The notes under the pieces were generated by a model. It did no database searches. It worked only from the letters and a program-made list of their open reading frames with translations, and was not told the origin of the DNA. A DNA stretch of 61,594 nucleotides from a virus. Lineage: Duplodnaviria; Caudoviricetes. Position numbers and translations under genes: made by a program. Where the stretch lies: positions 1 through 61,594 of the IMG/VR virus record IMGVR_UViG_3300023440_000006; one strand, given 5' to 3'. Positions 783 to 36,449 of this stretch are shown piece after piece; position 1 is the first letter of the stretch; every line of letters begins with the position of its first letter.

Positions 783-1490
783 ATGAGTGACGAAATTGTT
801 ATGGAAACTAACACTGGAGATGATGAAGAGTCTACCAGCTATCAAGAAGAACGGGCAATTTTGTTCCTCAGTGGTGATATTGAGCGAAGCCATTTAGAAA
901 TCTGTGGAGCACTTTTAAATTGGCACTACACAGATGGATTTAATGAACCAATTTATCTCATTATTAACAGTAACGGTGGGGACTGTAGTATTGGATGGTC
1001 CATCATTGATATGATGAACTATGTTAGATTACCAATTTATACAATAGCAATTGGTATTGTAGCGTCTATGGCAGCTGATATTTTTGCCAATGGTGACCAT
1101 CGAACCATTGGAGAGCATGCTAGTCTTATGATCCATCCTCACTCTGCTGTTCGTTTTGGATCTCACTCCCAGCTTGTTGCACATGCTAGAGCAGATGATC
1201 TTGAACATAATAGGCGTCTTGCTCATTACGCAAACAACTCTAAATATAACACAGTTAAAGATGTTCAAGAGAACCTCTTTAATACCATGGGTGATGATCT
1301 ATGGCTCTCTCCTGATGAGGCATTAGAGCATGGGATTTGTGATGAAATTGCAAGAACCGACAAATCTAAACGACGCAAAGCGTTTGGATTCGTACCTAAG
1401 GGGCATGGAGAGATTAGTAAACATCCTGCAAGACGTAGAAGTAGTACCGGAAGAGGGGTTAAGCGAAAATCCATTCATAAGAGAACCTGA
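783..1490 (+). CDS. clpP: ClpP-family serine protease
   Basis: INSNGG, catalytic Ser in VASMAA, His in LMIHPH, Asp in GDDLWLSPDEALEHGICDEI. Confidence 0.88.
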   Translation: MSDEIVMETNTGDDEESTSYQEERAILFLSGDIERSHLEICGALLNWHYTDGFNEPIYLIINSNGGDCSIGWSIIDMMNYVRLPIYTIAIGIVASMAADIFANGDHRTIGEHASLMIHPHSAVRFGSHSQLVAHARADDLEHNRRLAHYANNSKYNTVKDVQENLFNTMGDDLWLSPDEALEHGICDEIARTDKSKRRKAFGFVPKGHGEISKHPARRRSSTGRGVKRKSIHKRT

Positions 1491-1773
1491 TCTCTTATCA
1501 CTACTATTGGCTACAATACAACATATGCCTGAATGGGAGTTAAAACAATTAGATACTAATGGTGATTCATGGCATGCGGTGAAGAAGCCAAGCACTGATG
1601 ATTTAGAAGTTAAAGCTTCTAATCAAAAAGCTGTAAACGGCGTGACGCTTATAGACTTGCTTTATTGGTTACTCTCGCACAACTTCATTGAGTCTCTGCA
1701 GTCAAATATTGATATAATAGAGGAAGAATTTCCCAATCTTGGTATTTCTTTATCATTGTATCTTGAGCCATAA
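1405..1773 (+). CDS. hypothetical protein
   Basis: ATG at 1405 preceded by TAAGGGG; overlaps the 3' end of clpP. Confidence 0.6.
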   Translation: MERLVNILQDVEVVPEEGLSENPFIREPDLLSLLLATIQHMPEWELKQLDTNGDSWHAVKKPSTDDLEVKASNQKAVNGVTLIDLLYWLLSHNFIESLQSNIDIIEEEFPNLGISLSLYLEP

Positions 1774-2020
1774 AATCTAAAATTGCTGTGAGCTTATATA
1801 GCTTAGTCTTTATATGAGAATACAGAAGACAAATAAATCAAACATTTAAATTGTTAATATAATACAGTTAAATGATATAAATATTTTGTAATTTTATCTT
1901 AGTTATTTTTTTATTGCATTTTATAAATTGGAATTAAGATTACGTATTACAAATAGCAATTCTTAGCAAGAAGATTAGGACTAGATATTTTTTTCTTAGC
2001 GAAGATTGCATAGGTTAGAA

Positions 2021-2365
2021 ATGGAAGAAGAAACCATAGAGCCATCTCCAGTCTGTGAAGATGAAGAACGGGAGAAGGCAAATGAAACGCTTCAAGAATT
2101 GATTGAAGTTTTTAATAGACGAAAACTACGTGTCCAAGATATCGTTGTTGTTTATGGTAATTTGGGTTATGCACTCGGCGCCTCAATCGAAGGTGTTAAA
2201 GACGGTCAAGGACCAACTATCGATGAGTTACAACAACGCTACTACTCAGAGCCAACATTGGGCGTTAGTCTAATGTTACAAGGATATCTTGTCACATCTT
2301 GGCATGATCAGGTTAGTAAAGGTTTAACGATAGACTCATTAAAGGAGACCAAAAAAGATGTCTAA
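2021..2365 (+). CDS. hypothetical protein
   Basis: ORF track 2006..2365; ATG at 2021 more likely; overlaps the start of the next gene. Confidence 0.7.
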   Translation: MEEETIEPSPVCEDEEREKANETLQELIEVFNRRKLRVQDIVVVYGNLGYALGASIEGVKDGQGPTIDELQQRYYSEPTLGVSLMLQGYLVTSWHDQVSKGLTIDSLKETKKDV

Positions 2366-2891
2366 TAAGAGACCATTACAATATGCAATTTATAAGGGTA
2401 TAGGTGGCAAGTTCGGTGCATTGCAATTTAACTTCCAGAGCCCTCATTACTATAGAGACAAGGAAAAGGATTTTACTGGCCATACTGCCCTTGATGAAAG
2501 GGGTAAGTTGCGTGATGGCTGGCGCCAAAGAGAGGGCGCAGTTTTTATTGAAGCTGCCTCTGCTATTGGAAAGAATCTATATGATTGGGAGAATAAGATC
2601 ACTTTTGCCTGTTCTGTAAGTGATATGGGCAAATTGATACACTCCCTAACTACCGGCACAGAGTTAGATATTATGCATGATCCAGGTGCCAAGACAGATA
2701 GAGAAGGTGCTACCCGTAAGCACGTGAAGCTCTATACCAAGGATGGTATTGCTAAAGCTGGCTGTATGCTTACTGTTACAGAGCAGACTCGTGAAGATAA
2801 GAAGGAGCATAAGGTTCCTGTGTCTCCAGATGAATGCATTGTCCTCCGACAGCTATTACTTCATGCCGTATCTAGGGCATTAGCTTGGTGA
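2358..2891 (+). CDS. Whirly-family ssDNA-binding protein
   Basis: IYKG..GAL, EG.VFIEAA.A.G...YDW.NK.TF..SV.DMG, HDP....EG..RK, VPVS.DE..VL and a terminal W, in the order seen in plant Whirly proteins. Confidence 0.78.
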   Translation: MSNKRPLQYAIYKGIGGKFGALQFNFQSPHYYRDKEKDFTGHTALDERGKLRDGWRQREGAVFIEAASAIGKNLYDWENKITFACSVSDMGKLIHSLTTGTELDIMHDPGAKTDREGATRKHVKLYTKDGIAKAGCMLTVTEQTREDKKEHKVPVSPDECIVLRQLLLHAVSRALAW

Positions 2892-2894
2892 ATT

Positions 2895-3566
2895 ATGACT
2901 CATGAAGCTTCCAATAAGGAAACCTGTGGGCTTAATGAGACTATTGAAGAAACCCAAGAGCGTCTGCGACTAGCTTATGGCTTAGTTGCAGACTTAATTG
3001 CTACAAGGAGAGAGGATCTTCCAGTATCAGTTCTGAAAGGCCTTAAAACTATTAGAGATGTTTTAGATATAGAACAATATATGTTAGATGAGGTGAGAGA
3101 GATTCTTAAGCCAGTTAGCTCTGAAGATCAAGATAAGATCATCATTTCCTGTGATGCATCTATTACTAGGAACCCAGGAGGGAGAGTGGCTGTGGGCGTC
3201 GTTATTCGATTTCCTCCTGAAGATAAACTTGATCCTATCAAACTAGCTAGGTGTACTCCATCTTCGACAAACAATGAAGGAGAGTATGATGCTGTATACG
3301 AAGGATTGGTACACCTATTCAATACACATAATCGACCAAAACATGAAGTCGTTATAAGGTCAGATAGTAAGCTGGTAGTTAATCAGCTACTTGGAGAATG
3401 GAACATCAACAATGATACGCTACAAAGGAAGTGTGATTCAATTCACGAACTTGTAGCTAATGGACCCGTTCCGGTTCAGATTGAGTGGAAGCCACGAAAC
3501 TCAACCCCCGACCTCACTGAAGCCAACTTCCTAGCACAGGATGAGCTAGGAGTGAGAAGACATTAA
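2895..3566 (+). CDS. rnhA: ribonuclease HI with N-terminal helical extension
   Basis: CDAS..RNPG, TNNEGEY, RSDSKLVVNQ..GEW, W.PR..., the RNase HI catalytic motifs. Confidence 0.85.
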   Translation: MTHEASNKETCGLNETIEETQERLRLAYGLVADLIATRREDLPVSVLKGLKTIRDVLDIEQYMLDEVREILKPVSSEDQDKIIISCDASITRNPGGRVAVGVVIRFPPEDKLDPIKLARCTPSSTNNEGEYDAVYEGLVHLFNTHNRPKHEVVIRSDSKLVVNQLLGEWNINNDTLQRKCDSIHELVANGPVPVQIEWKPRNSTPDLTEANFLAQDELGVRRH

Positions 3567-3571
3567 GATTA

Positions 3572-3616
3572 AAATATCTGCGATTATAGTTTCAGCATTC
3601 ATTATCGCAGGTATTT
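3572..3616 (+). promoter_or_regulatory. intergenic inverted repeat (terminator or translational operator)
   Basis: AAATATCTGCGAT ... ATCGCAGGTATTT, a 13-bp stem with one G-U pair, between rnhA and the ssb-like gene. Confidence 0.5.
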
Positions 3617-3640
3617 ATTCATTTATCTTTAGGAGACAAT

Positions 3641-3985
3641 ATGTGGGCAATTCATGGAATGATGGCCATTCCTGGCGATCCTCAGGTGCAGGTATCCTCA
3701 CCTACCGGAACCAATAAGGGTAAATTTATCAACTTTAAAGCTGTCACTGAAGGTAGAAAGCAGGGCCAAGACGCTACATACCAATACTGGCATTGTGCCA
3801 TGTGGGTACCTGAAGATAAGGTAGATTATTGGGTAGACCAACTTAAACCAGGCCATGTATTCATCATTGAACATGCATATTGCACTAGTTATCCTGTGCA
3901 AGATGGCAAATACCACAACACTCTTGTTCGTCTCGAGCATCAAAAGGTTAAAAGATTACAAAAAGCTATGTGGGCAAAGGAATAG
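3641..3985 (+). CDS. ssb: SSB-like OB-fold protein lacking an acidic tail
   Basis: G..DP...G..FINF.AV......TYQYWHC.MW....LKPG..F.IE pattern typical of SSB; AGGAG SD. Confidence 0.6.
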   Translation: MWAIHGMMAIPGDPQVQVSSPTGTNKGKFINFKAVTEGRKQGQDATYQYWHCAMWVPEDKVDYWVDQLKPGHVFIIEHAYCTSYPVQDGKYHNTLVRLEHQKVKRLQKAMWAKE

Positions 3986-3987
3986 AT

Positions 3988-4506
3988 ATGTCATTCGAGA
4001 AAGACTTTGAGAATTATATTACTGAAGAAGATGAGCTAGCACCTGAAGATGTATTTCAGATGGTCACTATCATGCCGAAACGCAAGATCAAGATGACTGC
4101 ACATCTGGAAGATAAAGATGGTCAAAAGATTACATTGGCTACTATTGCCACTAATCTTAAGAACTACATTGATGGACACATGGAGAATGTTGAAGATACT
4201 CCAGTTAACACTCAGCTATTCCCCCTTATCAATCAGATGATGGTATCCGCTATCCCACGCCATGTGGGGTTGCAACTTTCTAGCTTCTTGTTCGCTGCTC
4301 GAGGCAGTAGGCAGGCTATCTCAGTTTTCGGACTTCAGATCGCATTGCTAATGCGTTATATTCAGCAACATGAACTAAAAATTGTTACTGAACAAGTCAA
4401 GATCTCAGATAAGGAACTTGAGGATTATCTCTCTAAAGAAGCTGAAGCTAATTCTAGACTACGGAATGCAATTATGGGAGAAGATGATGACCCATCAGGG
4501 TTATAA
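3988..4506 (+). CDS. hypothetical protein
   Basis: Open ORF with AAGGA SD; tightly packed. Confidence 0.7.
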   Translation: MSFEKDFENYITEEDELAPEDVFQMVTIMPKRKIKMTAHLEDKDGQKITLATIATNLKNYIDGHMENVEDTPVNTQLFPLINQMMVSAIPRHVGLQLSSFLFAARGSRQAISVFGLQIALLMRYIQQHELKIVTEQVKISDKELEDYLSKEAEANSRLRNAIMGEDDDPSGL

Positions 4507-5152
4507 CCGAGAAGATATTGAAAGGGAACTTGAGAAATATAAAATTCCTAATCGTGGAATACATGCTCGTATTCCTGAGATGGTCATTCAGATTATTCCA
4601 ACAGATTTTAATGGAACTTATTGGGATATTGGATCAGATATTAGTGAAGTACGAAGGCAGGACGTCTACCGGTTTCTATATTACGCATCCCAGGCTTATA
4701 AAAAAACAGATCCATTAGCTAGCTATGCTCTACCATTAACTTTTCATGAGGTTGAATTAGAGCTAAGTGAAAGGGGTAAGCCTCAACAGCTTGAGATTTT
4801 TATTCAGCTCAATCTGCATAAATGCAAAGCAAGTCCCTTTCTTGTTCAATTAATTAATAAATACAAAACCACTAAGTTTAGCTTAGGGTTTGTACCCTAT
4901 CATGCTGATGAATTAAGAATACTTAAAAATCTATCTATATTTAGAAAAGGTGCATTAAGTACTATTTTTTTTAATAAAAAGAAACTCCTTAGACTTAAGG
5001 TAGATATTCCATATCTAAAAAAACTTGCAGATGATGAGATGGCGTTGTTTCTTGATCAGGATATAGACTCAAAGAGTAAGCATCTTGATAGTGATGAGCA
5101 AAATATTATAAAGCATACAACTAATGCTGAATTATTGGAGCTGGAACTATGA
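4484..5152 (+). CDS. hypothetical protein
   Basis: ORF track 4382..5152; ATG 4484 has a GGGAG SD. Confidence 0.65.
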   Translation: MMTHQGYNREDIERELEKYKIPNRGIHARIPEMVIQIIPTDFNGTYWDIGSDISEVRRQDVYRFLYYASQAYKKTDPLASYALPLTFHEVELELSERGKPQQLEIFIQLNLHKCKASPFLVQLINKYKTTKFSLGFVPYHADELRILKNLSIFRKGALSTIFFNKKKLLRLKVDIPYLKKLADDEMALFLDQDIDSKSKHLDSDEQNIIKHTTNAELLELEL

Positions 5153-5734: not shown

Positions 5735-7471
5735 ATGTCAAATTATAATAATTCAATGGAAGAGATTGAGGTAGCAGTGAAGTCGCTTAGCCCATTTGTT
5801 TGGGTTAGGACTCATGAAGAACAACGATTCATTCTAGACTTCTCAGCAAAGATGAAAGAAAGTGGGCGAGATGTATTCATCTGGTCCATCTATCAGGGTA
5901 TTGTTAGTCAGACGAATGTTATGACTGGTGAGCGCGCCACTGGTGCAATGCAGGATACTCTGCAAGTAGATAAAGCTCTTAATAAGATCATTAACATGCA
6001 GCCTGCTGAGAATCAGCGCGGTGTCGTTGTTATTATGCGTGACCCAATGATGATCCTTCAGGGTCCTGTTGTGCGTCAGCTTCGTGATTGCTACGTTCGA
6101 CTGAAGAAGTTTAGGGTTACAATTCTATTTCTTTCTGCACAGTTAGGTCATGGCCCAGGAGGAAAGAACTCGGGCCTTCCACCTACAATGGACAAGCAAA
6201 TTGTTGTTTGCGATTACGATTTGCCTAATATCAATCAGATCAACAAAATGATTCGTGAACTTATTCGGCAGACTGCACGGATAAATAATCCGAGTCCAAA
6301 AATCTCTAAGACTGAGCAAGAGCGCCTTGAAAAGCAATTAGAGAAACTAAAGTTTTCTAAAGAAGAGTATCATGAGTTTTCCAGAGCTCTTCAAGGTCTA
6401 ACTCATACTGAGGTAGATGTCGCTGTTTCTAGCTGTCTTCATCATATGAAAACTCTAGATATCAACTTCCTGCTTAATGCTAAGAAGCAGATTATCTCGA
6501 AGTCTGATATTCTTGAGTACCTCGACCATACTAAAACAATATCTGATATTGGTGGTATGGATCTAGCTAAGGATTTCTTTGAAGACTACACTGAGAATAA
6601 TACAGCTGAAGCTAAGGCATTTGGTGCTGAGCCACTTAAGGCTGTGCTTCTCGTTGGTATTCCTGGCTGTGGTAAGTCTCAGATGTGTAAAGCCGTAGCA
6701 TCTATGTGGAAGAATCCACTTCTACGCATGGATGTGGGCAAGGTTATGACCGGTCTTGTTGGTGGTTCCGAGTCTCGTATGCGTGAAGCCATCAAGCAAG
6801 TTGAAGCAGTTGCACCTTGTGTGCTTTGGATCGATGAGGTTGAAAAGGCTTTGTCTGGCACTAAGTCATCGAACTTTAGCGATGGTGGTACTATGGCTCG
6901 CGTATTTGGTACTCTGTTAACTGCCATGGAAGAAGGTCTTAAAGATGTAACTATTCTAGCTACAGCCAACGACCTGAGTGCTATGCCACCTGAGTTCCTC
7001 CGTCGTTTTGATGAGATCTTCTTTGTAGATCTTCCTGGTCCTGCAGAGCGTGAAGAGATTTTTAAGATTCATCTTCGCCTTAAGGGTTTCGAAGATTCTG
7101 AACTAGACATGGAGTCTCTTGTTAAAAAGTCAGAGAATTACACTGGTCACGAGATCGAAAAGGCAATTAAGAGGGGTATCACTAAGGCGTTTAGAACTGA
7201 TGATAAAAAGCTCACCACTGAGCTGATCGAAATGGCTCTAGATGATACAAAGCCCATCTATGATACAGCACATGAGAAGCTAATTAAGATGCGTGAAAAG
7301 GCGCAAAACAGATTCCGTTATGCCTCTTCCTGGGCAAGAGATCAGGGCAAGGAGTATGCCGCCAAGCAGAAGAAGATGGATGTAAAAGACATCGACCTTC
7401 CTGATATGACAACTAACAAACTATCCGCACCTGCTAAAACAGATTTGGATGGAGATCTAGAGCTAAATTAA
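5735..7471 (+). CDS. Ycf46-like AAA+ ATPase
   Basis: Walker A GIPGCGKS, Walker B VLWIDEVEK, ATAN...PPEFLRRFDEIFFVDLP, degenerate N-terminal AAA-like domain. Confidence 0.88.
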   Translation: MSNYNNSMEEIEVAVKSLSPFVWVRTHEEQRFILDFSAKMKESGRDVFIWSIYQGIVSQTNVMTGERATGAMQDTLQVDKALNKIINMQPAENQRGVVVIMRDPMMILQGPVVRQLRDCYVRLKKFRVTILFLSAQLGHGPGGKNSGLPPTMDKQIVVCDYDLPNINQINKMIRELIRQTARINNPSPKISKTEQERLEKQLEKLKFSKEEYHEFSRALQGLTHTEVDVAVSSCLHHMKTLDINFLLNAKKQIISKSDILEYLDHTKTISDIGGMDLAKDFFEDYTENNTAEAKAFGAEPLKAVLLVGIPGCGKSQMCKAVASMWKNPLLRMDVGKVMTGLVGGSESRMREAIKQVEAVAPCVLWIDEVEKALSGTKSSNFSDGGTMARVFGTLLTAMEEGLKDVTILATANDLSAMPPEFLRRFDEIFFVDLPGPAEREEIFKIHLRLKGFEDSELDMESLVKKSENYTGHEIEKAIKRGITKAFRTDDKKLTTELIEMALDDTKPIYDTAHEKLIKMREKAQNRFRYASSWARDQGKEYAAKQKKMDVKDIDLPDMTTNKLSAPAKTDLDGDLELN

Positions 7472-7488: not shown

Positions 7489-7902
7489 ATGAGCCATTGG
7501 ACCAAGGTAAAGTTAAAGATTACCAGCGAAGATGTTCTCGTAAAAGCCCTAAAGCGAATGGGCTGCGAGAATGTTCAAACTGGCGAACATCCTATTAACC
7601 AATACGGTGTTTCGGATACTGCCAACGTTTGGATTGATAATGCTGTTGGGTTTAAGAAAGAGAAAGATGGAAGTTATTCCATGATTGGAGACTTCTATCA
7701 CTCTAAAACCACTATGAGAAAGTATTATGGAAAAAATAATGAGTTTGAAGAGGACTTGAACGCAGCCTACGGTATCGAAGACGCTATTACCAAAATTGAT
7801 AGTCTTGGACTTGGTTTCTCACTTACTGGTAATGCTGAGTGTGAAGAGGATGAAGAAGGTATTATCCGACTTGAATTTACTACCTACAACGACATTGCGT
7901 AA
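7489..7902 (+). CDS. DUF1257/Ycf35-family protein
   Basis: MSHWTKVKLKI...LVKALKRMG N-terminus, VGF......Y..IGDF; expected position after a Ycf46 ATPase. Confidence 0.75.
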   Translation: MSHWTKVKLKITSEDVLVKALKRMGCENVQTGEHPINQYGVSDTANVWIDNAVGFKKEKDGSYSMIGDFYHSKTTMRKYYGKNNEFEEDLNAAYGIEDAITKIDSLGLGFSLTGNAECEEDEEGIIRLEFTTYNDIA

Positions 7903-7912
7903 GGAATAAAAG

Positions 7913-8101
7913 ATGATAAAAGTGCATGCAATTATTAACAAAAAGACTGGTCAGGTCGAATTCGAGGTAGAGGGTGTTGTCGGTGGACGTTGTACCGATA
8001 TCACTAAGGTTCTCCAACAGGGGCATGAGGTGCAGGAAGAGCAGTACACGGAGGAGTATTACACTCCAAGCGAACAGCCTGCCTATATCGAAGATCTCTA
8101 G
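7913..8101 (+). CDS. DUF2997-family protein
   Basis: I...G.V..EVEGVVG..C..IT......T.EYY, 62 aa. Confidence 0.75.
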   Translation: MIKVHAIINKKTGQVEFEVEGVVGGRCTDITKVLQQGHEVQEEQYTEEYYTPSEQPAYIEDL

Positions 8102-11168: not shown

Positions 11169-11776
11169 TGAGCATATTGATAGGCGTAGGCCATAAAAAT
11201 GGTCGTGGGAAAGACACTGTAGCTAATAGGTTAGTAGATAAGCATGGATTCATACGTGTATCTTGGGCTGATAGCCTTAAGGAAGCATGTAGAGTTATCT
11301 TCCTATTTAACGATGATCAGTTATATGGAGATAAAAAAGAAAAGATTGATCCGAGATGGGGGCGTACACCTCGCTGGATTCTCCAAAGATTTGGTGTAGA
11401 GGCATGTCGAAATAATATCGATCAGGACATATGGATAAAATCTGCATGGCTACGCATTCAGGCTATTTGGAAAGATAATCCTAATAAAAATATCGTAATT
11501 CCCGATATACGCTTTCCAAACGAAGCTAGCTTTATTAAGAAAAATGGTGGTATTCTCTGGCGTGTAGATAGAGATATCCCTGAGAATGAAAGCTCGAGTC
11601 ATACAAGTGAAACCTCTCTTGATACATACAAGGGATGGGATCAGGTATTAATAAACAATAGAGATATTACACATTTATATGCGTTAGTAGATGGATGCTT
11701 AGAGTCAGCTATAGCTCCCAAGCCACGGAGGAATGCGCGTGTCGTCATTAACACCAGAAATAATCAAGCAAATTGA
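11168..11776 (+). CDS. deoxynucleoside monophosphate kinase
   Basis: [12 protein letters not shown]-loop variant, [28 protein letters not shown]. Confidence 0.88.
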
Positions 11777-12794
11777 AATCCTCAAACAGGGGATTGACAA
11801 AAAGTATGGAGAAAATTCTCTTCGCATTCTCGGTGGGGATGAAGTCTCTAGTATTCCAAGACTTCCAACAGGAGCAGCATCTCTTGACCAGGCCAGTGGT
11901 GGAGGCTGGCCCTGGGGTCGTATTATTGAAATAATAGGACCAGAGTCTTCAGGTAAAACTACTCTAACACTAGAAGCTATTGCACAAGCCCAGAAGCAGG
12001 GAAAGGTCTGTGCCTTTATTGACGCAGAACATGCTCTCGATGTGGTCTATGCTAAAAACCTAGGTGTCATTGTAGAGGATCTATTAATTTCTCAGCCAGA
12101 TACAGCTGAGGAGGCATTAGATGTAGTAGATATGTTATCTAGCTCGGGCACTGTTAATCTTATTGTTGTAGATTCAGTTGCTGCTCTTGTCCCTAAAAAG
12201 GAGCTCGAGGGAGAGATGGGCGACAGTTCCATTGGTGTTCAGGCACGATTAATGAGCCAGGCTATGCGTAAGCTAACTGGCCAAGTATCTAGAAATAATG
12301 TACTTTTGTTCTTTATTAATCAGATTCGTTATAAGATTGGTGTGATGTTTGGTAATCCAGAAACTACATCTGGTGGAAATGCATTAAAATTCTATGCATC
12401 AATCCGCTGTGATGTGCGTAGAACTGGTACACAGAAAGACGGCGAGGACGCTGTTGCAAACGAGACTAGAGTTAAGTTCATTAAAAATAAAGTAGCTCCA
12501 CCATATAAGCAGGCTGAATTTATAATTAGGTTTGGTACTGGTATTGATAAGTTCGTAGATTTGCTTAGAGTTGCAGTTAAGTCTAAGATCGTACAAAGGT
12601 CTGGTGCATGGTATAGTTATAAAGATACCAGGCTTGGGCAAGGCGAAAGAAATGCTGCTTTGTTCCTGGAAGAGAACGAAGATATTGCTGAAGAAATCAG
12701 AGCTGGCCTGAGACCAAAGACTGTGGAGGACCCAGAGGATGTTTCTACGCGGAACAATGACTTACGAGCAATTGACAGGAATAGGACAGCCTAA
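11733..12794 (+). CDS. recA: RecA recombinase
   Basis: [47 protein letters not shown]. Confidence 0.97.
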
Positions 12795-16251: not shown

Positions 16252-17217
16252 ATGAATCTAAATGATTTCTGCCATCTACACACCCACAGTGTATACAGCA
16301 TTCTTGATGGCGAGAACCAAATTAATGCACTGGTCAAAAGAGTAAAAGAATTAGGAATGAATCAGATTGCGCTCACTGATCATGGCACAATGATGGGCAT
16401 TCTTGAGTTCTATAAAACCTGCCTAAAGAACAATGTAAAACCAGTCCTCGGCGTAGAGGCGTACATTACAAATGATGAAGATGGAATCCCAAAAGAGCAA
16501 AGAAATAGAGACAATAACCATCTTGTTATGGTGGCAGAGACTGAAGAAGGTCTTCGTAACCTTTTCTGGCTTACCTCTAAGGCACAAACAGAGAATTTCT
16601 ATTTCAAACCAAGAATATCAAAGAAAAATCTTACTTCAGAACGAGTCAGAGGGATAATCGCTACAAGTGCATGTCTAGGAAACGAGGTCAATCGAGTAGG
16701 CACATTCGATCCTGATACTAGGCTATATTCTAATCGGGAAAAGATGGAAGAAGCTGCGTGTTGGTATCATAAGGCCTTTGAAGGCAATTACTTCCTCGAG
16801 ATTCAAGACAATGATGATGAGGCAGGACAGCAGCTTGCTTATAACAATGTCATCAAAGATATCGCACAAAAGAGTAATATTCCACTTGTAATCACAGCAG
16901 ATGCTCACTACACACAGATAGAAAGCAGTGAAACGCATACCCTTATTATGGCCATGCAATTAAAGAAAGCGCTAAAGGATTACGAGGAAAACAGCAACAT
17001 GAAGTATGGTCCCTGGTTCTTCGTTAGAAGTCCAGAACAAATGCTTGAGGCTGCACGTAAGTATGATGCTGAAGAAGCATTTTGGAATGCATGTGACATT
17101 GGGAAAAGATGCAATGTTAGCATAGAGATTGGTAATTATAAAAATCCAATATTCGATATACAGTCACAACCAGATTACGAAGACTTTAAAAAGTTTGAAG
17201 GAGTAGATAATGAGTAA
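16252..17217 (+). CDS. dnaE: DNA polymerase III alpha, stand-alone PHP domain (N-terminal part)
   Basis: HLHTHSVYSILDG, ALTDHG, KPVLGVEAY, HL, SACL, TADAHY; ends just before the palm region. Confidence 0.92.
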   Translation: MNLNDFCHLHTHSVYSILDGENQINALVKRVKELGMNQIALTDHGTMMGILEFYKTCLKNNVKPVLGVEAYITNDEDGIPKEQRNRDNNHLVMVAETEEGLRNLFWLTSKAQTENFYFKPRISKKNLTSERVRGIIATSACLGNEVNRVGTFDPDTRLYSNREKMEEAACWYHKAFEGNYFLEIQDNDDEAGQQLAYNNVIKDIAQKSNIPLVITADAHYTQIESSETHTLIMAMQLKKALKDYEENSNMKYGPWFFVRSPEQMLEAARKYDAEEAFWNACDIGKRCNVSIEIGNYKNPIFDIQSQPDYEDFKKFEGVDNE

Positions 17218-17486: not shown

Positions 17487-17864
17487 GTGATTGGCAAAAA
17501 GAAAAGATCCAAAAGAAAGCGGGGACCAGATGGGAACCTTTATACTGCAGAAGAGCTTGCATCTAGATTTTCAGATGAAAGTCATCCAGAGCAAGCTAAG
17601 AGTACAATAATTAAAACACCTGAACAACAAACTAGAGAGTCACAGGACAAACCTGCTATCCAAGAGAAGTCAACCAAAAGAGAAAGAGACTCCGCACCAA
17701 CAATAATCATCAGCTACATCGGTAGTAATGGTCAGAGAAATACAAAGTCATTTCAATGTGCGAATATAAAGCTTGATGAATATAAAGTCACTGAGATGAT
17801 GAGATCGGGCCCTAAGACAACTCTACATATTTCAGTAGAGGCCGATGTCGTTGAGGTAATGTAG
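17487..17864 (+). CDS. hypothetical protein with basic N-terminus
   Basis: GAGGTG SD; stop overlaps the start of the next gene. Confidence 0.65.
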   Translation: MIGKKKRSKRKRGPDGNLYTAEELASRFSDESHPEQAKSTIIKTPEQQTRESQDKPAIQEKSTKRERDSAPTIIISYIGSNGQRNTKSFQCANIKLDEYKVTEMMRSGPKTTLHISVEADVVEVM

Positions 17865-20509
17865 TGGATGAGTTAGCTAGATACTACATGTATAAAGCCA
17901 AGAAAGGCTTGGCTGAAAGAATTCCAAAATTACCCTATAAGGTTAATGAGAAGGAATATCAGGATAGACTAGATTATGAAAATAAGATCATCATACAAAT
18001 GGGCTATCCTGGCTACTTCTTAGTTGTTCAAGACTTTATTAACTGGGCTAAAAATCAAGGAATTTTAGTAGGTCCAGGACGGGGCTCTGGGGCTGGTGCA
18101 TTGGCTTGTTTTGCACTCGGGATCACCAATATTGATCCAATTCCATATGGACTTATCTTTGAGCGATTTTTAAATCCTGCTCGTGTCAGCATGCCTGACC
18201 TTGACATTGACTTTCCTAAGGCAAAACGAGATCTTGTCATTCAATATGTTCAAGACAAGTACGGACATGATAAGGTCGCACAGATTGGTACGTTTGGAAC
18301 ATTCAAGGCAAAAGCAGCAATTAAAGCAGTAGCTCGAACTCTCGGACATAAAATCATTGTGGCTGAAAAGCTTACAAAGCTTTGGCCAAAACCAAAACAT
18401 GGCAGGGAGATTAAATTCGAAGAGGCACTTGAAGACGTATCTAAGCTTAGAGAATGGTATGATTCTTCTACTCCAGAAGGAGAGATCCTTCGATGGGCGC
18501 ATAAGTGTGAAGGACGAGTTGCATCGTTTGGAATCCACGCATCAGGTGTAGTTATTAGCAATGAGCCGCTATATGAGACAGTTCCGCTAGCTATAGGTAG
18601 GCATGGTGAGACAGTCACTCAGTGGGACATGAATTGTATAGAAGATGTAGGTCTAATCAAATTTGATTTCTTAGGTCTAAAGAATCTTGATACAATTCAA
18701 CTCACAATGAACCATATCAAGAGACGATATGGTTTAGATATTGATATTGAAAACCTTCCACTTGATGATAGCAAGGTTTATTCAAATCTGAGAAAGGGAG
18801 ATAATATTGGTGTCTTTCAGCTTGAATCATCTTCAGGCATGAAAGACCTGCTTGTTAAAATTCGTCCAGAGAATATAGAAGATATCACTGCTCTAGTGGC
18901 CATGTACAGACCAGGCCCGCTCAATAGTAATAAAATGCCAGACTATCTTGCCTGGAGAGCTGGTCTAACTGAACCTACATATCATCATCCAAGCTTAGAA
19001 CCTATTCTTGCCTCTACTGGTGGTTGGATTGTATATCAAGAGCAGGTCTTACAGATTGCTAGAGACCTGGCAGGTTATGATCTCGCAGGAGCTGACCTAT
19101 TGCGTCGTGCAGTAGGTAAGAAAAAAGAAAAAGAAATGGCTGAGCATCTTGGTAGATTTACTAAGGGCATGGTAGATAATGGCTATACCAAGGATTTGGC
19201 CAATACGCTATGGAGCGAGATTAAAGCGTTCGCAGATTATGGCTTTAATAAAAGTCATGCATTTTCGTATGCCATGATTGCGTATTGGTGTGCCTATCTT
19301 AAAACCTATTACCCAACAGAGTTTATGGCTGCTGCGCTGACATGTGACAGTGGAAATATGGACCAGATGATAGTCTACCTACAGGAATGTAAGAGGCTAG
19401 GCATCGACGTATTGCCACCTGATATTAATGACTCAGAGCTTGAATTCACTCCATTGGACGGTCAAATACGATTTGGACTTACGGCAATTAAAAACCTTCG
19501 AGAAGGGCCAGGACGACATATTTTAGATGTCCGTAGTGAAGGTGGTAAATTTCAGAGTATTTTTGATTTTGCAAGAAGGATTGACCTAGGACTCGTCAAC
19601 CGGAAGAAGCTCGATTCCTTAGTATTGTCTGGCGCATTTGATTTTACTGAACAAAATCGTAGTACCCTACTACAGGCTATTGAAGATATTCTTGAATACA
19701 AGAAAGAGCAGAAGAGATACGAAAAGAAACTAGAAACTTTTGAAAAGAAGTCTGAAGCTTACCTTGGACGCCTTGCAGCAATTGAGCGAGGTGATAGGTC
19801 AGCTAATGGTGAGAAATTAAAATCTTTAAAGAAACCTGTACAGCCAAAAGCTCCTGAGTTCCCAACATATATGCCAGAGGCAGAGTTGGCTAAACAGCTT
19901 ATCCTCCATAAGGAAAAAGAGCTTACTGGCTTCTTTATGTCAGGTCATCCATTAGATGGATTTAAAGATAAGATCTGTAGAACAATTTCATCCCTAAAAG
20001 ATGATAAACCTGAACAAATCATTATGATTTGTCTACTTTCAGAACTGCAAATAAAAGAGTCCAAGAAGAAGCAGAGATATGCATTTGCTCGTTTCGAAGA
20101 CTTAACAGGAAATGTAGAAGGTGTAATATGGCCTTGGCTCTATAAGCAATGTAGTGATCAGCTTCTTTTAAATGTACCAATACGAATTGGAGCAAAGGTT
20201 ACCTACACAGACGCAGAGGTAGATGAAGACTCTAAGCAAGATGAAGTTATTCCTTATCTAGAGATCAAGTCAGTAGAGCTACTAGAGAGACCAACAGAAG
20301 ATAGTCAGAACATTACGATCGAAGTACCATTAAAGCTAAGCAGCGTTAAAGAAGTTAAAAAATCTTTAAACAAGCATGCCGGTAAAGCTGGTGTTGCTTC
20401 TGTAAGATTTAGGCTGCAGTCAGATGGTATACTAGCGGTTCCTAGGGTATTTGGTATTAATCAAAATGGAAGAGCAATCAAAACAGAAATACTCAGAAGA
20501 GGTAAATAG
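17864..20509 (+). CDS. dnaE: DNA polymerase III alpha, catalytic part (palm, thumb, fingers, HhH, OB)
   Basis: GPGRGSGAG, FERFLNPARVSMPDLDIDF, KFDFLGL, YGFNKSH, SGHPL, FEDLTG. Confidence 0.95.
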   Translation: MDELARYYMYKAKKGLAERIPKLPYKVNEKEYQDRLDYENKIIIQMGYPGYFLVVQDFINWAKNQGILVGPGRGSGAGALACFALGITNIDPIPYGLIFERFLNPARVSMPDLDIDFPKAKRDLVIQYVQDKYGHDKVAQIGTFGTFKAKAAIKAVARTLGHKIIVAEKLTKLWPKPKHGREIKFEEALEDVSKLREWYDSSTPEGEILRWAHKCEGRVASFGIHASGVVISNEPLYETVPLAIGRHGETVTQWDMNCIEDVGLIKFDFLGLKNLDTIQLTMNHIKRRYGLDIDIENLPLDDSKVYSNLRKGDNIGVFQLESSSGMKDLLVKIRPENIEDITALVAMYRPGPLNSNKMPDYLAWRAGLTEPTYHHPSLEPILASTGGWIVYQEQVLQIARDLAGYDLAGADLLRRAVGKKKEKEMAEHLGRFTKGMVDNGYTKDLANTLWSEIKAFADYGFNKSHAFSYAMIAYWCAYLKTYYPTEFMAAALTCDSGNMDQMIVYLQECKRLGIDVLPPDINDSELEFTPLDGQIRFGLTAIKNLREGPGRHILDVRSEGGKFQSIFDFARRIDLGLVNRKKLDSLVLSGAFDFTEQNRSTLLQAIEDILEYKKEQKRYEKKLETFEKKSEAYLGRLAAIERGDRSANGEKLKSLKKPVQPKAPEFPTYMPEAELAKQLILHKEKELTGFFMSGHPLDGFKDKICRTISSLKDDKPEQIIMICLLSELQIKESKKKQRYAFARFEDLTGNVEGVIWPWLYKQCSDQLLLNVPIRIGAKVTYTDAEVDEDSKQDEVIPYLEIKSVELLERPTEDSQNITIEVPLKLSSVKEVKKSLNKHAGKAGVASVRFRLQSDGILAVPRVFGINQNGRAIKTEILRRGK

Positions 20510-33058: not shown

Positions 33059-35526
33059 GAAGTGAACCCTCCAGTTGGCAATACGTTACGCCGATTATTA
33101 GAGTTATTGTTAATCACCGCTTCTCTTTCAGCCAATGCAACATCAAGAGGATGTGGCTTAAAGTCTGAACTAGGCGGATGGAATTTGAAGTAGATACTGC
33201 TTTTAAATGAGCTGATCTTGTTCTTCCCGACAATCATTTCAATAATAGGACGCCGAGTAGCTCCATTTCTCTGGGGCGCCATGTGATATGTATGCTCTTC
33301 AGCCCTATCACCCTTTTCGTGCATCTCATTATATAGGTGACAGATAAGGTTAGCATCATATTCCATCTGTACAGTCTCAGAAATATTGTCGTTAGTAGGA
33401 CGTGTACCAGCAGGTAGCTTAGTATATTCCATAGTACAGAACACAGGGATATGGAATCTAGTAGCCATGTTTTTAACTACTGTTGACATGATTTTAAATC
33501 TAGTTCTTTCATCTCCCATGCTCTCGAAGTCACGCAGTTTGTGAAAGTTGTCTAGAATATAGACAATCTGCCGATCTGGATATTTGTCCTGATAGTATTT
33601 AATCAGAGACTCCGCATAACCAAGAGACATGCCGTCATTAGCATCCTTAATCACTAGACGGCCTTTTCTTGTAAGATCTATAAGTCCTGAATAACCAGCT
33701 TCGCGGCGATATTTGATATCGTCTCCAACGATGTCTCCCTCGTGGCGCCTATAGAATTCTGGGTTTTTAACTTCATTAATCTGCAGCTCTGTGCTGCCCT
33801 CTGAGATACAGACAAATTTTGGGAGTACCTGTTCCTTAGTGTCGTCAATAGTGTGATAGATAACGCAAGCATTATTTTCCTTTTCGTGCACTGCAATTGA
33901 GTGTGCAATCTTGCACATTAAAGAAGTTTTGCCAGTATTAGCCTTTCCACCTACAACCAGCATTACATCCTTGCGACAGTCACCAGCTAGAACAATCTCT
34001 TGTAGCTCGTGTAAATCTTCGCCAAGTACAAAGCCCTGAAATTCACCAGTCCTCTCTTCCTCCTGACACTTCAGGTCTTGAATAAATCTTAGTGTACCTT
34101 CCTCAGAGAAGTTATCCTGATCATAGGCAGCTGAAAGGCTGTATAGTTTGCCTCCGGTCTCATTTAGAATTGTTTCTGCCTCAGACGGTGTCTTCTGTAA
34201 TTCACGAATAGCTTTATCAATAACAGACTGCCGCTCTCTATCTTTTTGACGTTCCTTGTCATTTACTAGACGGTTAAGCTCAGCCTGTAGCGTCTTAATA
34301 GAAAAGCCGGTATGCCGTGCCAAATCCTGGAGCATTTTTTCTTGAGAGATATGGGACGGCTCACTGACGACATGTGGAATCATCAGCTTACACATCTGCT
34401 CAGGATCTGCCTCTTCTTCAAACCGATTTAGTCTCCACTGAAAGGCTGTCCAAGGTACAAGCTCTTGGAAAGCCTCTACTCCAAAATGTCTAACATATTC
34501 GTCGGGATCATCTCCACCAGGGATGACAACAACCTTAACCGTAAGATCTTTATGTTGAGCAAAGCGCGTATCTAGAAGTGCTTCTGTTCTAGATTGTCCT
34601 GCTTCATCTCCATCCAAACAAAGTACTACATCGTAAATGCCGTGTTCTTTTAGAAGGAAAAGATGGTCATCAGTAAGGGCTGTACCACAAGCAGCAACAA
34701 CACGATTAAACCCATTTATCTGGCAGCTGACGACATCTGAATACCCCTCCATAATATAAAGAGGCCCCTCGTGTCGCTCTCTAAGGGCGTTATCAAGCCC
34801 ATAGAGTCGCTTACCCTTTTGATAGATGTTACACTTGACACCTGTGGTTTTCTGATTGACGTATTTAGGTCCTTCTTTGCCTAGATTGCGAGCAGCAAAA
34901 CCAACTGGACGACCAAATTCGTCTTTAATTGTGAAGATAAGGTGTCCAGGAGCGAAGATATCCTTGCGCCCAAGGTCTACATCATCTAGAAACTTAGCAG
35001 CAAATCCTAGTCCCTTAAGGTGTTCACGAAAGGTAGAGCTATCAGTTACAAAGCCGATGCCAAGCTTACGAAGGCTATCGTCAACCTCAAGCCATCCTCT
35101 GCGATCAAATTCTGCGCTGATATCATCAGGCTTATTTTTCCAGCCAGTGATGAATTCGTAGGCATATTTGTATGCTCGATAGGTGTCAAGCTCATACAGC
35201 TCTTCTTCGCTAAGCTCAGTATGCTCAATTTCAATGCCAAATTTTTCAGCCAGATACTGAAGTGTTTCAGTTATGTAGCCATTACCAGAAAGAGGCTTAC
35301 CTTCAAATAAATTAACTGCATCAAAAATGTCACCGGTTGCACCACACCCGTGACAGAAGAATCGCAGCTCATTAGGCCTAACGATGGACATGGATGGGCT
35401 TGAATCATTGTGATTTGGATGGATACACTTGAAGTTCTTATCAGTATCAATCCCCTGTTCTTGTAAATATTCAATTAGGTGCTTTTGAATCTTTTTAGTA
35501 GTTTCATCGAAATTCTTGATTTTCAT
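33055..35526 (-). CDS. dnaG: DnaG primase - DnaB-like helicase fusion
   Basis: CHC2 zinc finger (CIHPNH..SPS..CHGC), PKYVN, Toprim EGYSDV and CLDGDEAG; C-terminal GGKANTGKTS, ILDNF, EYDAN, KNK. Confidence 0.9.
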   Translation of the reverse strand: MKIKNFDETTKKIQKHLIEYLQEQGIDTDKNFKCIHPNHNDSSPSMSIVRPNELRFFCHGCGATGDIFDAVNLFEGKPLSGNGYITETLQYLAEKFGIEIEHTELSEEELYELDTYRAYKYAYEFITGWKNKPDDISAEFDRRGWLEVDDSLRKLGIGFVTDSSTFREHLKGLGFAAKFLDDVDLGRKDIFAPGHLIFTIKDEFGRPVGFAARNLGKEGPKYVNQKTTGVKCNIYQKGKRLYGLDNALRERHEGPLYIMEGYSDVVSCQINGFNRVVAACGTALTDDHLFLLKEHGIYDVVLCLDGDEAGQSRTEALLDTRFAQHKDLTVKVVVIPGGDDPDEYVRHFGVEAFQELVPWTAFQWRLNRFEEEADPEQMCKLMIPHVVSEPSHISQEKMLQDLARHTGFSIKTLQAELNRLVNDKERQKDRERQSVIDKAIRELQKTPSEAETILNETGGKLYSLSAAYDQDNFSEEGTLRFIQDLKCQEEERTGEFQGFVLGEDLHELQEIVLAGDCRKDVMLVVGGKANTGKTSLMCKIAHSIAVHEKENNACVIYHTIDDTKEQVLPKFVCISEGSTELQINEVKNPEFYRRHEGDIVGDDIKYRREAGYSGLIDLTRKGRLVIKDANDGMSLGYAESLIKYYQDKYPDRQIVYILDNFHKLRDFESMGDERTRFKIMSTVVKNMATRFHIPVFCTMEYTKLPAGTRPTNDNISETVQMEYDANLICHLYNEMHEKGDRAEEHTYHMAPQRNGATRRPIIEMIVGKNKISSFKSSIYFKFHPPSSDFKPHPLDVALAEREAVINNNSNNRRNVLPTGGFTS

Positions 35527-35543
35527 AACTCATCTTCTTTAGG

Positions 35544-36449
35544 TTAGAGTTGTAGAAGCCCCGCTTTCTCGAGGCTTTTTGCTTGATTACAGAAAGGAAG
35601 CGCTGAACAATAGCCGCACCGCTTTACTTTTCCGGGTCTATGCTGAACATACCCGTTTATATTTTTTTCTGATTTATAAGCGTAAGCGGCATCTTCACTA
35701 TCACATACCTTAGTGGCACGCTTGTTGCCGTTTTTATAAACCGCCCAAGTATCATCAGTTTGCCAAAGTTCCTCGGGGGTGCAGAATGGCAAATCATCGT
35801 CTGGAGTGTTCTCGTGCTCCTGCAGAACCTCCAGCTTCTTAATAATTCTATCCTCTGTAGCTTCTGGCTCAAGTAGCTTTACTCCATATCCAGGAAAAAT
35901 TCTTTGTTTTGGATAGTCGTCATCTTGGCGAGCTTTGCTCTTCTGCCAGTCAGTGAAGAAGAAGTCGATATAGCCAGTGCTTTTTATCTCCTGATAAGTT
36001 TCAGATAATAACCATCTATAGATGGACATTTGCTTTATGTAATCGTCATCTTTTCCACCATATATATAAGCCCAGGTAGAAGTAGTCTTTATATCTCGTA
36101 TAGTTACCGAACCATCCTCATTCTCTTGAAGTAGGTCATACTTGCCTGTAATGGTATATTCGGTTCCATTTACAACCAGATTTCTTCTAACTCTTTGTTC
36201 TTTTGAGAAACCAGGTGTATTGATGCGTTCAATGGAGTCATGAATTGCATTCCCAAATCGAGATGCAATCAGATCTGATACGTCCATTTGCAACTTGCTT
36301 GAATGTCTAAGAGTCAGAAGTCTAACTCGTACAGGCTTAAGCAAAGAGGTTGCAGATACAGTGTTGGGATTATCGTCGTAATCATAGTCATCATTCTCCA
36401 ACCAGTCTACGATATACTGGGGGAGATCTAATTTATTTGTAAAGATCAT
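35544..36449 (-). CDS. PD-(D/E)xK exonuclease (Cas4/RecB-like)
   Basis: SATSL, GNAIH, TGKYD, DIKTT, Q.SIY, C-terminal CGYC...FC. Confidence 0.8.
   Translation of the reverse strand: MIFTNKLDLPQYIVDWLENDDYDYDDNPNTVSATSLLKPVRVRLLTLRHSSKLQMDVSDLIASRFGNAIHDSIERINTPGFSKEQRVRRNLVVNGTEYTITGKYDLLQENEDGSVTIRDIKTTSTWAYIYGGKDDDYIKQMSIYRWLLSETYQEIKSTGYIDFFFTDWQKSKARQDDDYPKQRIFPGYGVKLLEPEATEDRIIKKLEVLQEHENTPDDDLPFCTPEELWQTDDTWAVYKNGNKRATKVCDSEDAAYAYKSEKNINGYVQHRPGKVKRCGYCSALPFCNQAKSLEKAGLLQL

Follow-up and report, generated by a model that had tools for sequence, protein, structure and literature searches.

The closest described relatives of the protein treated here are the organellar Whirly proteins of plants and green algae, which plant reviews up to 2022-2024 term plant-specific (PMC9070903). 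The comparators used in this work are potato StWhy1 (= PBF-2 p24) and StWhy2 and Arabidopsis WHY1/2/3, with the structures PDB 1l3a, 3n1h, 4koo, 4kop and 4koq. In homologous recombination repair in Arabidopsis chloroplasts, WHY1/3, RNase H1C and RecA1 are described as sharing sites of action (PMC8266629). A 2026 preprint reports that purified WHY1/WHY3 stimulate strand exchange by RecA1 and that canonical mitochondrial single-stranded DNA-binding proteins (SSBs) do not (bioRxiv 10.64898/2026.10.24.761589). On the viral side, the nearest published case is ChmC, a protein of jumbo phages that form a nucleus (chimalliviruses), which is kin at the level of the fold only. Here we describe P0001, a Whirly-family protein encoded by the virus record IMGVR_UViG_3300023440_000006. 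The window, i.e., the whole stretch of DNA that was analysed, is this entire IMG/VR record of 61,594 bases (b), which is judged to be ~32% complete and has ~40% G+C. Among the matches listed in a full-text literature search, no description of a phage-encoded protein of the Whirly family PF08536 was found, and the papers on PF08536 were all plant studies.

IDENTITY OF THE PHAGE WHIRLY

As to identity, the gene product is almost certainly a genuine member of the Whirly family, minimal in form and encoded by a large, uncultured tailed phage. Against the Pfam profile PF08536, P0001 scores E 9.5e-21 and 74.5 bits, passing the gathering cut-off of 23. The match spans residues 57-165, corresponding to positions 28-135 of the 136 in the profile, and a six-frame profile search of the whole record reproduces the same result. 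The plant proteins are also recovered from the PDB: phmmer with P0001 matches chains of StWhy2, AtWHY2, PBF-2 p24, WHY3 and WHY1 at E 8.8e-9 (StWhy2, 3n1h) to 1.7e-5, and a profile of 52 relatives matches chains of the same five proteins at E 7.1e-18 (StWhy2) to 8.1e-14. Judged by sequence, the likeness to Whirly is far above chance. A Pfam scan up to E 10 gave no match of P0001 to the SSB family PF00436, and the sole PHROG match is insignificant (phrog_12078, E 0.22).

The original prediction, which was made from the letters of the DNA and its translations, had named a full-length phage-encoded Whirly on the basis of motifs that follow the plant order. These motifs are present in that order, namely YAIYKG (9-14), EGAVFIEAASAIGKNLYDWENKITF..SVSDMG (59-91), HDPGAKTDREGATRK (107-121), VPVSPDECIVL (153-163) and W177, and the reading is borne out by the PF08536 profile, the modelled fold and the predicted tetramer. 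The + strand translates as one open frame that closes on a terminal W and then a stop, the reverse strand is riddled with stops, and a Shine-Dalgarno sequence, AAGGAG, lies 5' of the ATG. The gene is real, because 95 further proteins share 40-71% identity with its product and all 96 matches carry PF08536. P0001 itself is a single domain that starts at about residue 7, and it has neither a transit peptide nor a C-terminal tail (it ends ...RALAW, W177).

PREDICTED FOLD AND ASSEMBLY

AlphaFold2 (AF2), run with a 52-sequence alignment of the subfamily (A1), models P0001 as two tandem beta-beta-beta-beta-alpha repeats (predicted local distance difference test, pLDDT, 95.4; predicted template modelling score, pTM, 0.88). 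Repeat 1 consists of strands 9-12, 21-33, 61-71 and 81-85 with helix 87-99; repeat 2 consists of strands 103-107, 119-126, 136-144 and 147-155 with helix 157-174; and an additional hairpin is formed by 36-38 and 56-58. When the model was compared with the PDB by Foldseek, the best 12 among the matches listed were plant Whirlies only, with template modelling (TM) scores of 0.70-0.85 and E 9e-12 to 1.8e-9. Full-length superposition on 1l3a, 4koq, 4koo and 3n1h gives TM 0.77-0.85 and an rmsd (root-mean-square deviation) of 2.3-2.5 A at 21-28% identity. The repeats expected of a Whirly are thus seen in the model, and a tetramer is predicted as well.

For the complex of four copies, the interface score ipSAE is 0.93 in 3/3 runs, and the best of three controls reached 0.00. 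At least 89% of the contacts agree between runs, and the pLDDT of the partner is at least 88. Contacts between subunits are predicted in helices 87-99 and 157-177, at the N-terminus (3-9) and in part of an insert of ~24 residues. In calibration, the ipSAE mark was reached by 20 of the 30 proteins solved as one-chain pairs vs 1 of the 23 solved as single chains; the calibration was made on two copies, whereas the P0001 run used four. We therefore regard the tetramer model as a likeness to the Whirly tetramer rather than as proof of one.

RELATIVES AND CONSERVED RESIDUES

A word-indexed protein search returned 96 matches, the query included, at E <=0.001 among 125 candidates. The relatives of P0001 are 149-214 aa long and lie on contigs of up to 205,849 b. 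The C-terminus falls 0-2 residues past the final W in 94 of the 96 subfamily members; the other two have no C-terminal W and are apparently cut short. Alignment A1 has 24 invariant columns, including Y12, K13, G14, R58, G60, Y75, W77, K80, H107, D108, P109, K121, P154 and W177. When the comparison is widened to 18 sequences from phage to plant (alignment A4), G60, D76, H107, D108, G117, K121 and P154 are still invariant, and K13, A21, Y75, W77, K80, P109 and E159 are kept in at least 90%.

The wider family is large. An exhaustive profile search of a library of 1.84 billion proteins gave 823 representatives at E <=0.001 (331 at <=1e-10 and 73 at <=1e-30), and the best 150 of the 823 are mostly short proteins without a transit peptide. 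A search for fused Whirly forms of 311-2000 aa gave 0/388 candidates at E <=1e-5, which is weak evidence. Databases already auto-label phage Whirlies: in BFVD the top match, A0A6J5NR37 of UniProt, bears the name 'Whirly transcription factor [uncultured Caudovirales phage]'; JGI auto-names two relatives of P0001 as Whirly transcription factor; and the look-alike clusters in the ESM Atlas are labelled mostly Viruses/Uroviricota, one of them being auto-named 'Whirly transcription factor domain-containing protein'. P0001 adds one more member to a known family, though in a viral setting that is unpublished, and it is one of a radiation rather than a new kind of protein.

Cultured phages and cellular genomes contribute little to this picture. 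Neither P0001 (at E 1e-3) nor the Whirly of a second phage lineage, L013 (P0258), matched any of 50,697 GenBank phage records by tblastn, a collection from which the window's own record or its close kin may be missing. BFVD does hold an uncharacterised 121-aa protein of the cultured Acinetobacter phage vB_AbaM_ME3, A0A172Q074, which can be aligned to the Whirly model along 127 columns, with a target-based TM of 0.80, an rmsd of 2.0 A and 22% identity, and which may be a shortened Whirly-like protein in a phage isolate. A scan of 185,579 species genomes with subfamily-specific patterns found one locus only, L010. This is L003 over again, one and the same phage contig of 61,922 b, placed in a metagenome-assembled genome of 'Candidatus Pacearchaeota'; since its gene content equals that of the bacterial-phage-like loci, the contig is probably mis-binned and no evidence of an archaeal host.

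THE RECA LINK AND A PROPOSED FUNCTION

We lean, with modest confidence, towards the reading that the phage Whirly is a tetrameric ssDNA-binding helper (ssDNA, single-stranded DNA) of phage RecA-dependent recombination. This mechanism is preferred because the phage block of Whirly, RNase H and, farther along, RecA mirrors the chloroplast WHY1/3-RNH1C-RecA1 group. On the phage side, the family, the fold, the gene order and the co-occurrence with RecA are observed. A RecA-family gene is present in 10/10 Whirly-bearing records (the window, G001-G005 and G006-G009). They include an independent phage lineage (L013 in record G005) whose 151-aa Whirly lies 3.4 kb from a UvsX/RecA-like gene and which was reached by a search for short relatives with a plant-type hairpin (alignment A6); a further search for viral loci of such relatives (alignment A7) gave 0/103 candidate stretches. 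In one record, G002 (that of locus L006), the RecA match at 34475-35829 comes in two pieces (profile positions 3-203 and 200-262), ~570 b apart and in different frames, and an intervening element or a frameshift may be responsible.

By analogy with the plant proteins, the phage homotetramer would bind ssDNA without sequence preference on its outer beta-sheet faces. It would coat resected ends or displaced strands, where the coat would discourage spurious annealing at microhomologies, and it would pass the ssDNA to the phage's own bacterial-type RecA, while the RNase H from the adjoining downstream gene would clear RNA:DNA hybrids. In all of this the Whirly would act alongside OB-fold (oligonucleotide/oligosaccharide-binding) SSBs and would not replace them. 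Both the ssDNA binding and the stimulation of RecA are carried over from plant biochemistry. If phage Whirlies do bind ssDNA and stimulate RecA, they would be a convenient model of a mechanism that is difficult to take apart in organelles, with small proteins expressible in E. coli and with the cognate RecA, RNase H and SSB on the same genome.

Several points weigh against the RecA-helper reading. We found no experiment on any phage Whirly, and binding and function are argued by analogy. The co-occurrence of RecA in eight close relatives amounts to about one observation, because these relatives are one lineage with conserved gene order; L013 is the second. RecA or UvsX is common in large phages anyway, and the RecA gene of the window lies ~9 kb from the Whirly gene rather than adjoining it. 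The literal KGKAAL of plant Whirlies is replaced by KGIGGKFGAL in P0001. The coupled protein encoded upstream has no known fold, so the actual partner or pathway may differ, and the high score of the tetramer model may stem from the model's memory of solved Whirly tetramers. Finally, neither the window nor seven other fragmentary records (14-61% complete) gave a match to PF00436, so that the SSB of this very phage is a presumed one.

The adjoining RNase H gene bears on another reading, in which the Whirly acts mainly on RNA or on RNA:DNA hybrids, either as an R-loop or primer factor together with RNase H or as an mRNA binder like ChmC. We consider this unlikely. From 51 pattern matches, eight related viral loci emerged, and their contents were read by tblastn and by inspection of open reading frames (ORFs). 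The RNase H gene begins 4 nt past the Whirly stop in the window, and a homologue comes after the Whirly gene in four of the eight loci (L002, L004, L005 and L006), but in the other four it is not beside it. ChmC is reported to be a Whirly-fold tetramer that prefers single-stranded RNA (dissociation constant 58 nM vs 184 nM for ssDNA; PMC11077065), and a plant review calls the WHIRLY proteins DNA/RNA-binding (PMC9070903). However, its report describes ChmC as having no detectable sequence similarity to known proteins (PMC11077065), whereas P0001 is a clear PF08536 member that matched none of the GenBank phage records, and Foldseek groups P0001 with the plant ssDNA-binding Whirlies (TM 0.77-0.85) and not with MRP1/2 (0.49-0.54).

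THE N-TERMINAL HAIRPIN

The plant hairpin YKG-KAAL corresponds in P0001 to Y12-K-G-I-G-G-K18-F-G-A-L22, in which MAFFT sets IGGK as an insert. By crude patterns, the form YKG-IGG-KFGAL fits 92/96 close relatives, and among 149 representatives 81 have the phage form, 16 the plant type and 52 neither. Green-algal Whirlies are also described as having no KGKAAL (PMC9070903), and the motif therefore marks a higher-plant subgroup and not the whole family.

In StWhy2, the second lysine of KGKAAL is reported to drive 24-mer assembly (PMC3245945). Another reading takes the phage Whirly as a DNA-compacting or regulatory protein, i.e., a nucleoid architectural factor, a transcription regulator (cf. potato PBF-2), or an ssDNA decoy in host takeover or anti-defence. 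It is consistent with the conservation of hairpin residue K18 in at least 90% of sequences, with the 24-mers that WHY2 forms on long ssDNA (PMC3245945) and with descriptions of plant WHIRLY1 as compacting nucleoids and as a transcription factor originally (PMC9070903). Yet the hairpin insert makes it uncertain whether K18 corresponds to the lysine behind the plant 24-mers, and the conserved neighbours of the gene belong to DNA metabolism, with no regulatory or defence genes flanking it. We rate a compacting or regulatory role as highly improbable.

RELATION TO SINGLE-STRANDED DNA-BINDING PROTEINS

The original prediction had also seen in the phage Whirly a non-OB-fold SSB for this phage group. 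As an additional ssDNA binder this stands; as the sole SSB it probably does not. PF00436 SSBs occur in 2/10 Whirly-bearing records, namely G001 (two copies) and G005 (one). The former is a complete genome (188,653 b, terminal repeats, 100% complete) whose two SSBs have acidic C-terminal tips, ...DESDMPF and ...NEDLPF, and the latter is 72% complete. In the window, the ORF two genes 3' of the Whirly gene (Table 1) likely encodes a divergent OB-fold protein. The nearest structural cluster of its ESM Atlas model is PF00436 SSB (TM 0.72 over 107 residues), and hhalign aligns it collinearly, though weakly (E 0.0017, probability 15%), with one canonical SSB of G001. Its profile has weak PDB matches only (Rim1, E 0.56), and no Pfam or PHROG match was obtained. 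Homologues of this ORF are present in 5/8 related loci. Because G001 and G005 carry PF00436 SSBs, the Whirly subfamily has no tail and an OB-like ORF lies downstream, the Whirly probably acts as a further ssDNA binder, rather than as the sole SSB of the phage or the hub of its replisome.

These data bear on the reading of the Whirly as the principal replicative SSB, of non-OB fold, coating the lagging strand at a replisome of DnaE and primase-helicase. The Whirly gene does lie within the replication block, and the window has no match to PF00436 or to SSBs of the gp32 (PF08804) or Enc34/gp2.5 type (PF10991). But the window is only ~32% of the genome, and the gp32 and Enc34/gp2.5-type searches, with 0/4 records each, are uninformative, since no control genome matched either family. 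The two acidic-tipped SSBs of the complete relative, the SSB of G005, the missing partner-recruiting tail in 94/96 subfamily members and the probable OB-fold protein two genes downstream all speak against a principal replicative role, which we regard as quite improbable. The RecA-helper reading, with the Whirly as an additional binder, remains the one we prefer.

THE PHAGE RECORD AND ITS GENE NEIGHBOURHOOD

The window is a fragment of a large uncultured tailed phage. It carries replication genes (DnaE-type polymerase, SbcD-like exonuclease, primase-helicase and ribonucleotide reductase) and large virion proteins, and it also encodes a ClpP-like protease, RNase H, AAA ATPase, dNMP kinase, bacterial-type RecA and a PHP domain. 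Further genes are those for thymidylate synthase, PhoH, an amidase endolysin and a glycosyltransferase, and a sigma-factor family is matched weakly (E 9.7e-5). No tRNA gene was found in the window and no Rfam family at gathering score, and the repeats in 1500-4200 are short two-copy matches only. On sequence comparison, the phage is far from cultured phages: its polymerase is <40% identical to each of 1,415 matching records, and its 1,071-aa virion protein matches three Bacillus jumbo phages only, at 24-26% identity over ~1/4 of its length. The main features are collected in Table 1.

Table 1. Coordinates of the Whirly gene, its neighbours and the comparison locus L013 (positions in the window unless stated otherwise)
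Feature	Position	Strand	Remarks
ClpP-family protease	783-1490		5' of Whirly block; E 3.4e-25; kept in 8/8 related loci
Intergenic AT-rich stretch	1774-2020	.	5' of helical ORF; no + strand ORF >=40 aa
Small all-helical protein, unknown family	2006-2365	+	119 aa from TTG 2006; likelier 114 aa from ATG 2021
Whirly-family protein P0001	2358-2891	+	177 aa; PF08536 profile, AF2 fold, Foldseek, tetramer model
RNase H1-type protein	2895-3566	+	RNase H domain ~81-223, N-terminal extension; starts 4 nt after Whirly stop
Probable divergent OB-fold SSB-like protein	3641-3985	+	114 aa; no acidic tail; two genes 3' of Whirly
Bacterial-type RecA recombinase	11733-12794	+	Proposed functional partner of Whirly; Pfam RecA E 6.7e-116, RecA_C E 4.4e-19
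L013 Whirly	6001-6456 of a 136,294-b IMG/VR contig		Plant-like YKGKAAM hairpin; polymerase of a different family (phrog_17)

The Whirly gene stands in a same-strand block of the helical ORF, Whirly, RNase H, the OB-like ORF, RecA, PHP domain plus DnaE polymerase, and exonuclease. With its stop, the helical ORF reaches 8 nt into the Whirly gene (ATGTCTAA), and in 8/8 related loci a homologous small ORF ends a few bases from the Whirly start. We consider the two genes to be translationally coupled and the helical product to be a candidate partner of the Whirly. Its AF2 model has five helices (pLDDT 81.9), with no fold match in the PDB (best E 2.7) and no match to Pfam, PHROG or other profiles. 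A Rad52-like annealase as the partner was ruled out for this lineage: the upstream ORF is all-helical with no PDB match, and PF04098 was found in 0/4 records (G000, G001, G002 and G005). The product of the RNase H gene matches Pfam RVT_3 (E 1.2e-7) and RNase_H (E 2.8e-6) as well as the RNase H profile phrog_531 (E 1.9e-12).

The AT-rich stretch ahead of the helical ORF is probably the start of a transcription unit with the helical ORF, Whirly, RNase H and the OB-like ORF, with a putative promoter. A sigma-70 consensus scan found no site in it and fewer matches in the region than in shuffles (18 vs 27.2), and a terminator scan gave no excess over shuffles.

Some side observations concern the neighbouring genes. 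The AAA ATPase gene (5735-7471) is kept in 8/8 related loci; L002-L006 also retain the trio that it forms with a 137-aa ORF (7489-7902; phrog_20456) and a 62-aa ORF (7913-8101; phrog_23133). For L008 and L009, the match to the AAA gene is broken into two or three pieces with 0.7-1.2 kb between them, a pattern suggestive of an insertion, e.g., of an intein, an intron or a homing endonuclease. The DnaE-type polymerase is encoded in parts, namely a PHP-domain ORF (16252-17217), a 125-aa ORF (17487-17864) and the core (17864-20509). The ORFs 3970-4506 and 4382-5152 have 125 nt in common; for the second of these genes, the TTG at 4382 is probably placed too far upstream, and translation would really begin later.

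ORIGIN OF THE FAMILY

With phage Whirlies, the origin of a family that passed for plant-specific becomes testable. Two trees were built, both unrooted and with sampling biased toward the phage query. For the FastTree, 243 proteins of at least 140 aa were reduced to 170 rows by greedy removal of rows >=62% identical (73 near-duplicates); 14 shorter proteins had been left out. Thirteen of its rows are eukaryote-like: seven bear plant or algal names at NCBI, and six were assigned by clustering with named plant proteins and by N-terminal extensions (all but one short row). The 13 fall within a 25-row clan (support 85), whereas the window lies in a 145-row clan, a large one of short metagenomic proteins. 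In the IQ-TREE 'quick' tree of 56 hand-picked rows, 11 eukaryote-like rows and two short unnamed rows form a clade (Shimodaira-Hasegawa-like approximate likelihood ratio test, SH-aLRT, 97), which is sister to five short proteins including the phage Whirly of L013, although this support (85, not starred) is weak. The window is in a separate 32-row clan (support 89). P0001 is not the nearest phage relative of the plant Whirlies in these trees.

The original prediction held that a viral Whirly could point to a phage or bacterial origin of the family. The eukaryote-like sequences do form one clan, with which a phage or bacterial origin is compatible; because the trees are unrooted, one group being a clan makes the other group one too, and they do not tell which way the transfer went. 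A phage origin is accepted for the T7-like organellar RNA polymerase and for Twinkle. That the phage Whirly radiation was the source of the plant family, with an ancestor of green plants taking its Whirly from a phage, is in our view possible but doubtful. If so, the chloroplast WHY1/3-RNH1C-RecA1 repair group would have its ancestral form in the phage set of Whirly, RNase H and bacterial-type RecA, and among living lineages those like L013, with their plant-like YKGKAAM hairpin, would stand closest to the donor.

COMPARISON WITH KNOWN SYSTEMS

The canonical OB-fold SSB (PF00436) is comparable to the Whirly in its presumed coating of ssDNA and in being tetrameric, but it has an unrelated fold and an acidic C-terminal tip. 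P0001 has neither a PF00436 match nor such a tip, and both kinds of protein coexist in the most complete records. The PC4-like/PUR-alpha/MRP1-MRP2 superfamily is described as having a common design of beta-sheet-plus-helix repeats for single-stranded nucleic acids (PMC7549692). PUR and MRP are remote from P0001, with TM 0.38-0.40 for Pur-alpha and 0.49-0.54 for MRP1/2 at 7-10% identity, and with no sequence match. The sensor domains of Shedu and Menshen are likewise sPC4/Whirly at the level of the fold only.

ChmC (PhiPA3 gp61, PhiKZ gp67 and Goslar gp176) is, like P0001, a phage Whirly-fold protein, described as a homotetramer that binds single-stranded nucleic acid (PMC11077065). The kinship is of the fold only: its report gives beta-beta-beta-alpha repeats and an rmsd of 4.7 A to MRP1 (PMC11077065). 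ChmC is further described as having a disordered N/G-rich C-terminal tail, a preference for RNA and a role in mRNA export from the phage nucleus (PMC11077065), whereas P0001 is tailless and belongs to PF08536 by sequence. No match of P0001 to ChmC emerged from the tblastn search of the GenBank phage records given above, in which the inclusion of the three ChmC genomes is unchecked.

The plant Whirlies are closer. They share with P0001 the PF08536 profile, the two-repeat fold over its full length (TM 0.77-0.85) and the helix-mediated tetramer, which is predicted for P0001. The signature residues YDW..K, HDP, G..xK and VP.S..E..L...W are common to both. The differences lie at the ends, within the first repeat and in the genetic setting. 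Plant WHY1/2/3 have a transit peptide and a C-terminal extension after GW, and P0001 has neither. P0001 has between strands 2 and 3 an insert of ~24 residues (31-56) that is specific to its lineage and absent from plant Whirlies; it contains the near-invariant G41 and W55, is modelled with confidence (block means of pLDDT 96-97) and is in contact with the adjacent subunit of the modelled tetramer. Unlike the plant genes, that of P0001 is translationally coupled to one for a small helical protein. In its wider gene content, however, a phage genome with a bacterial-type RecA and an RNase H beside its Whirly resembles the WHY1/3-RNH1C-RecA1 group of chloroplasts.

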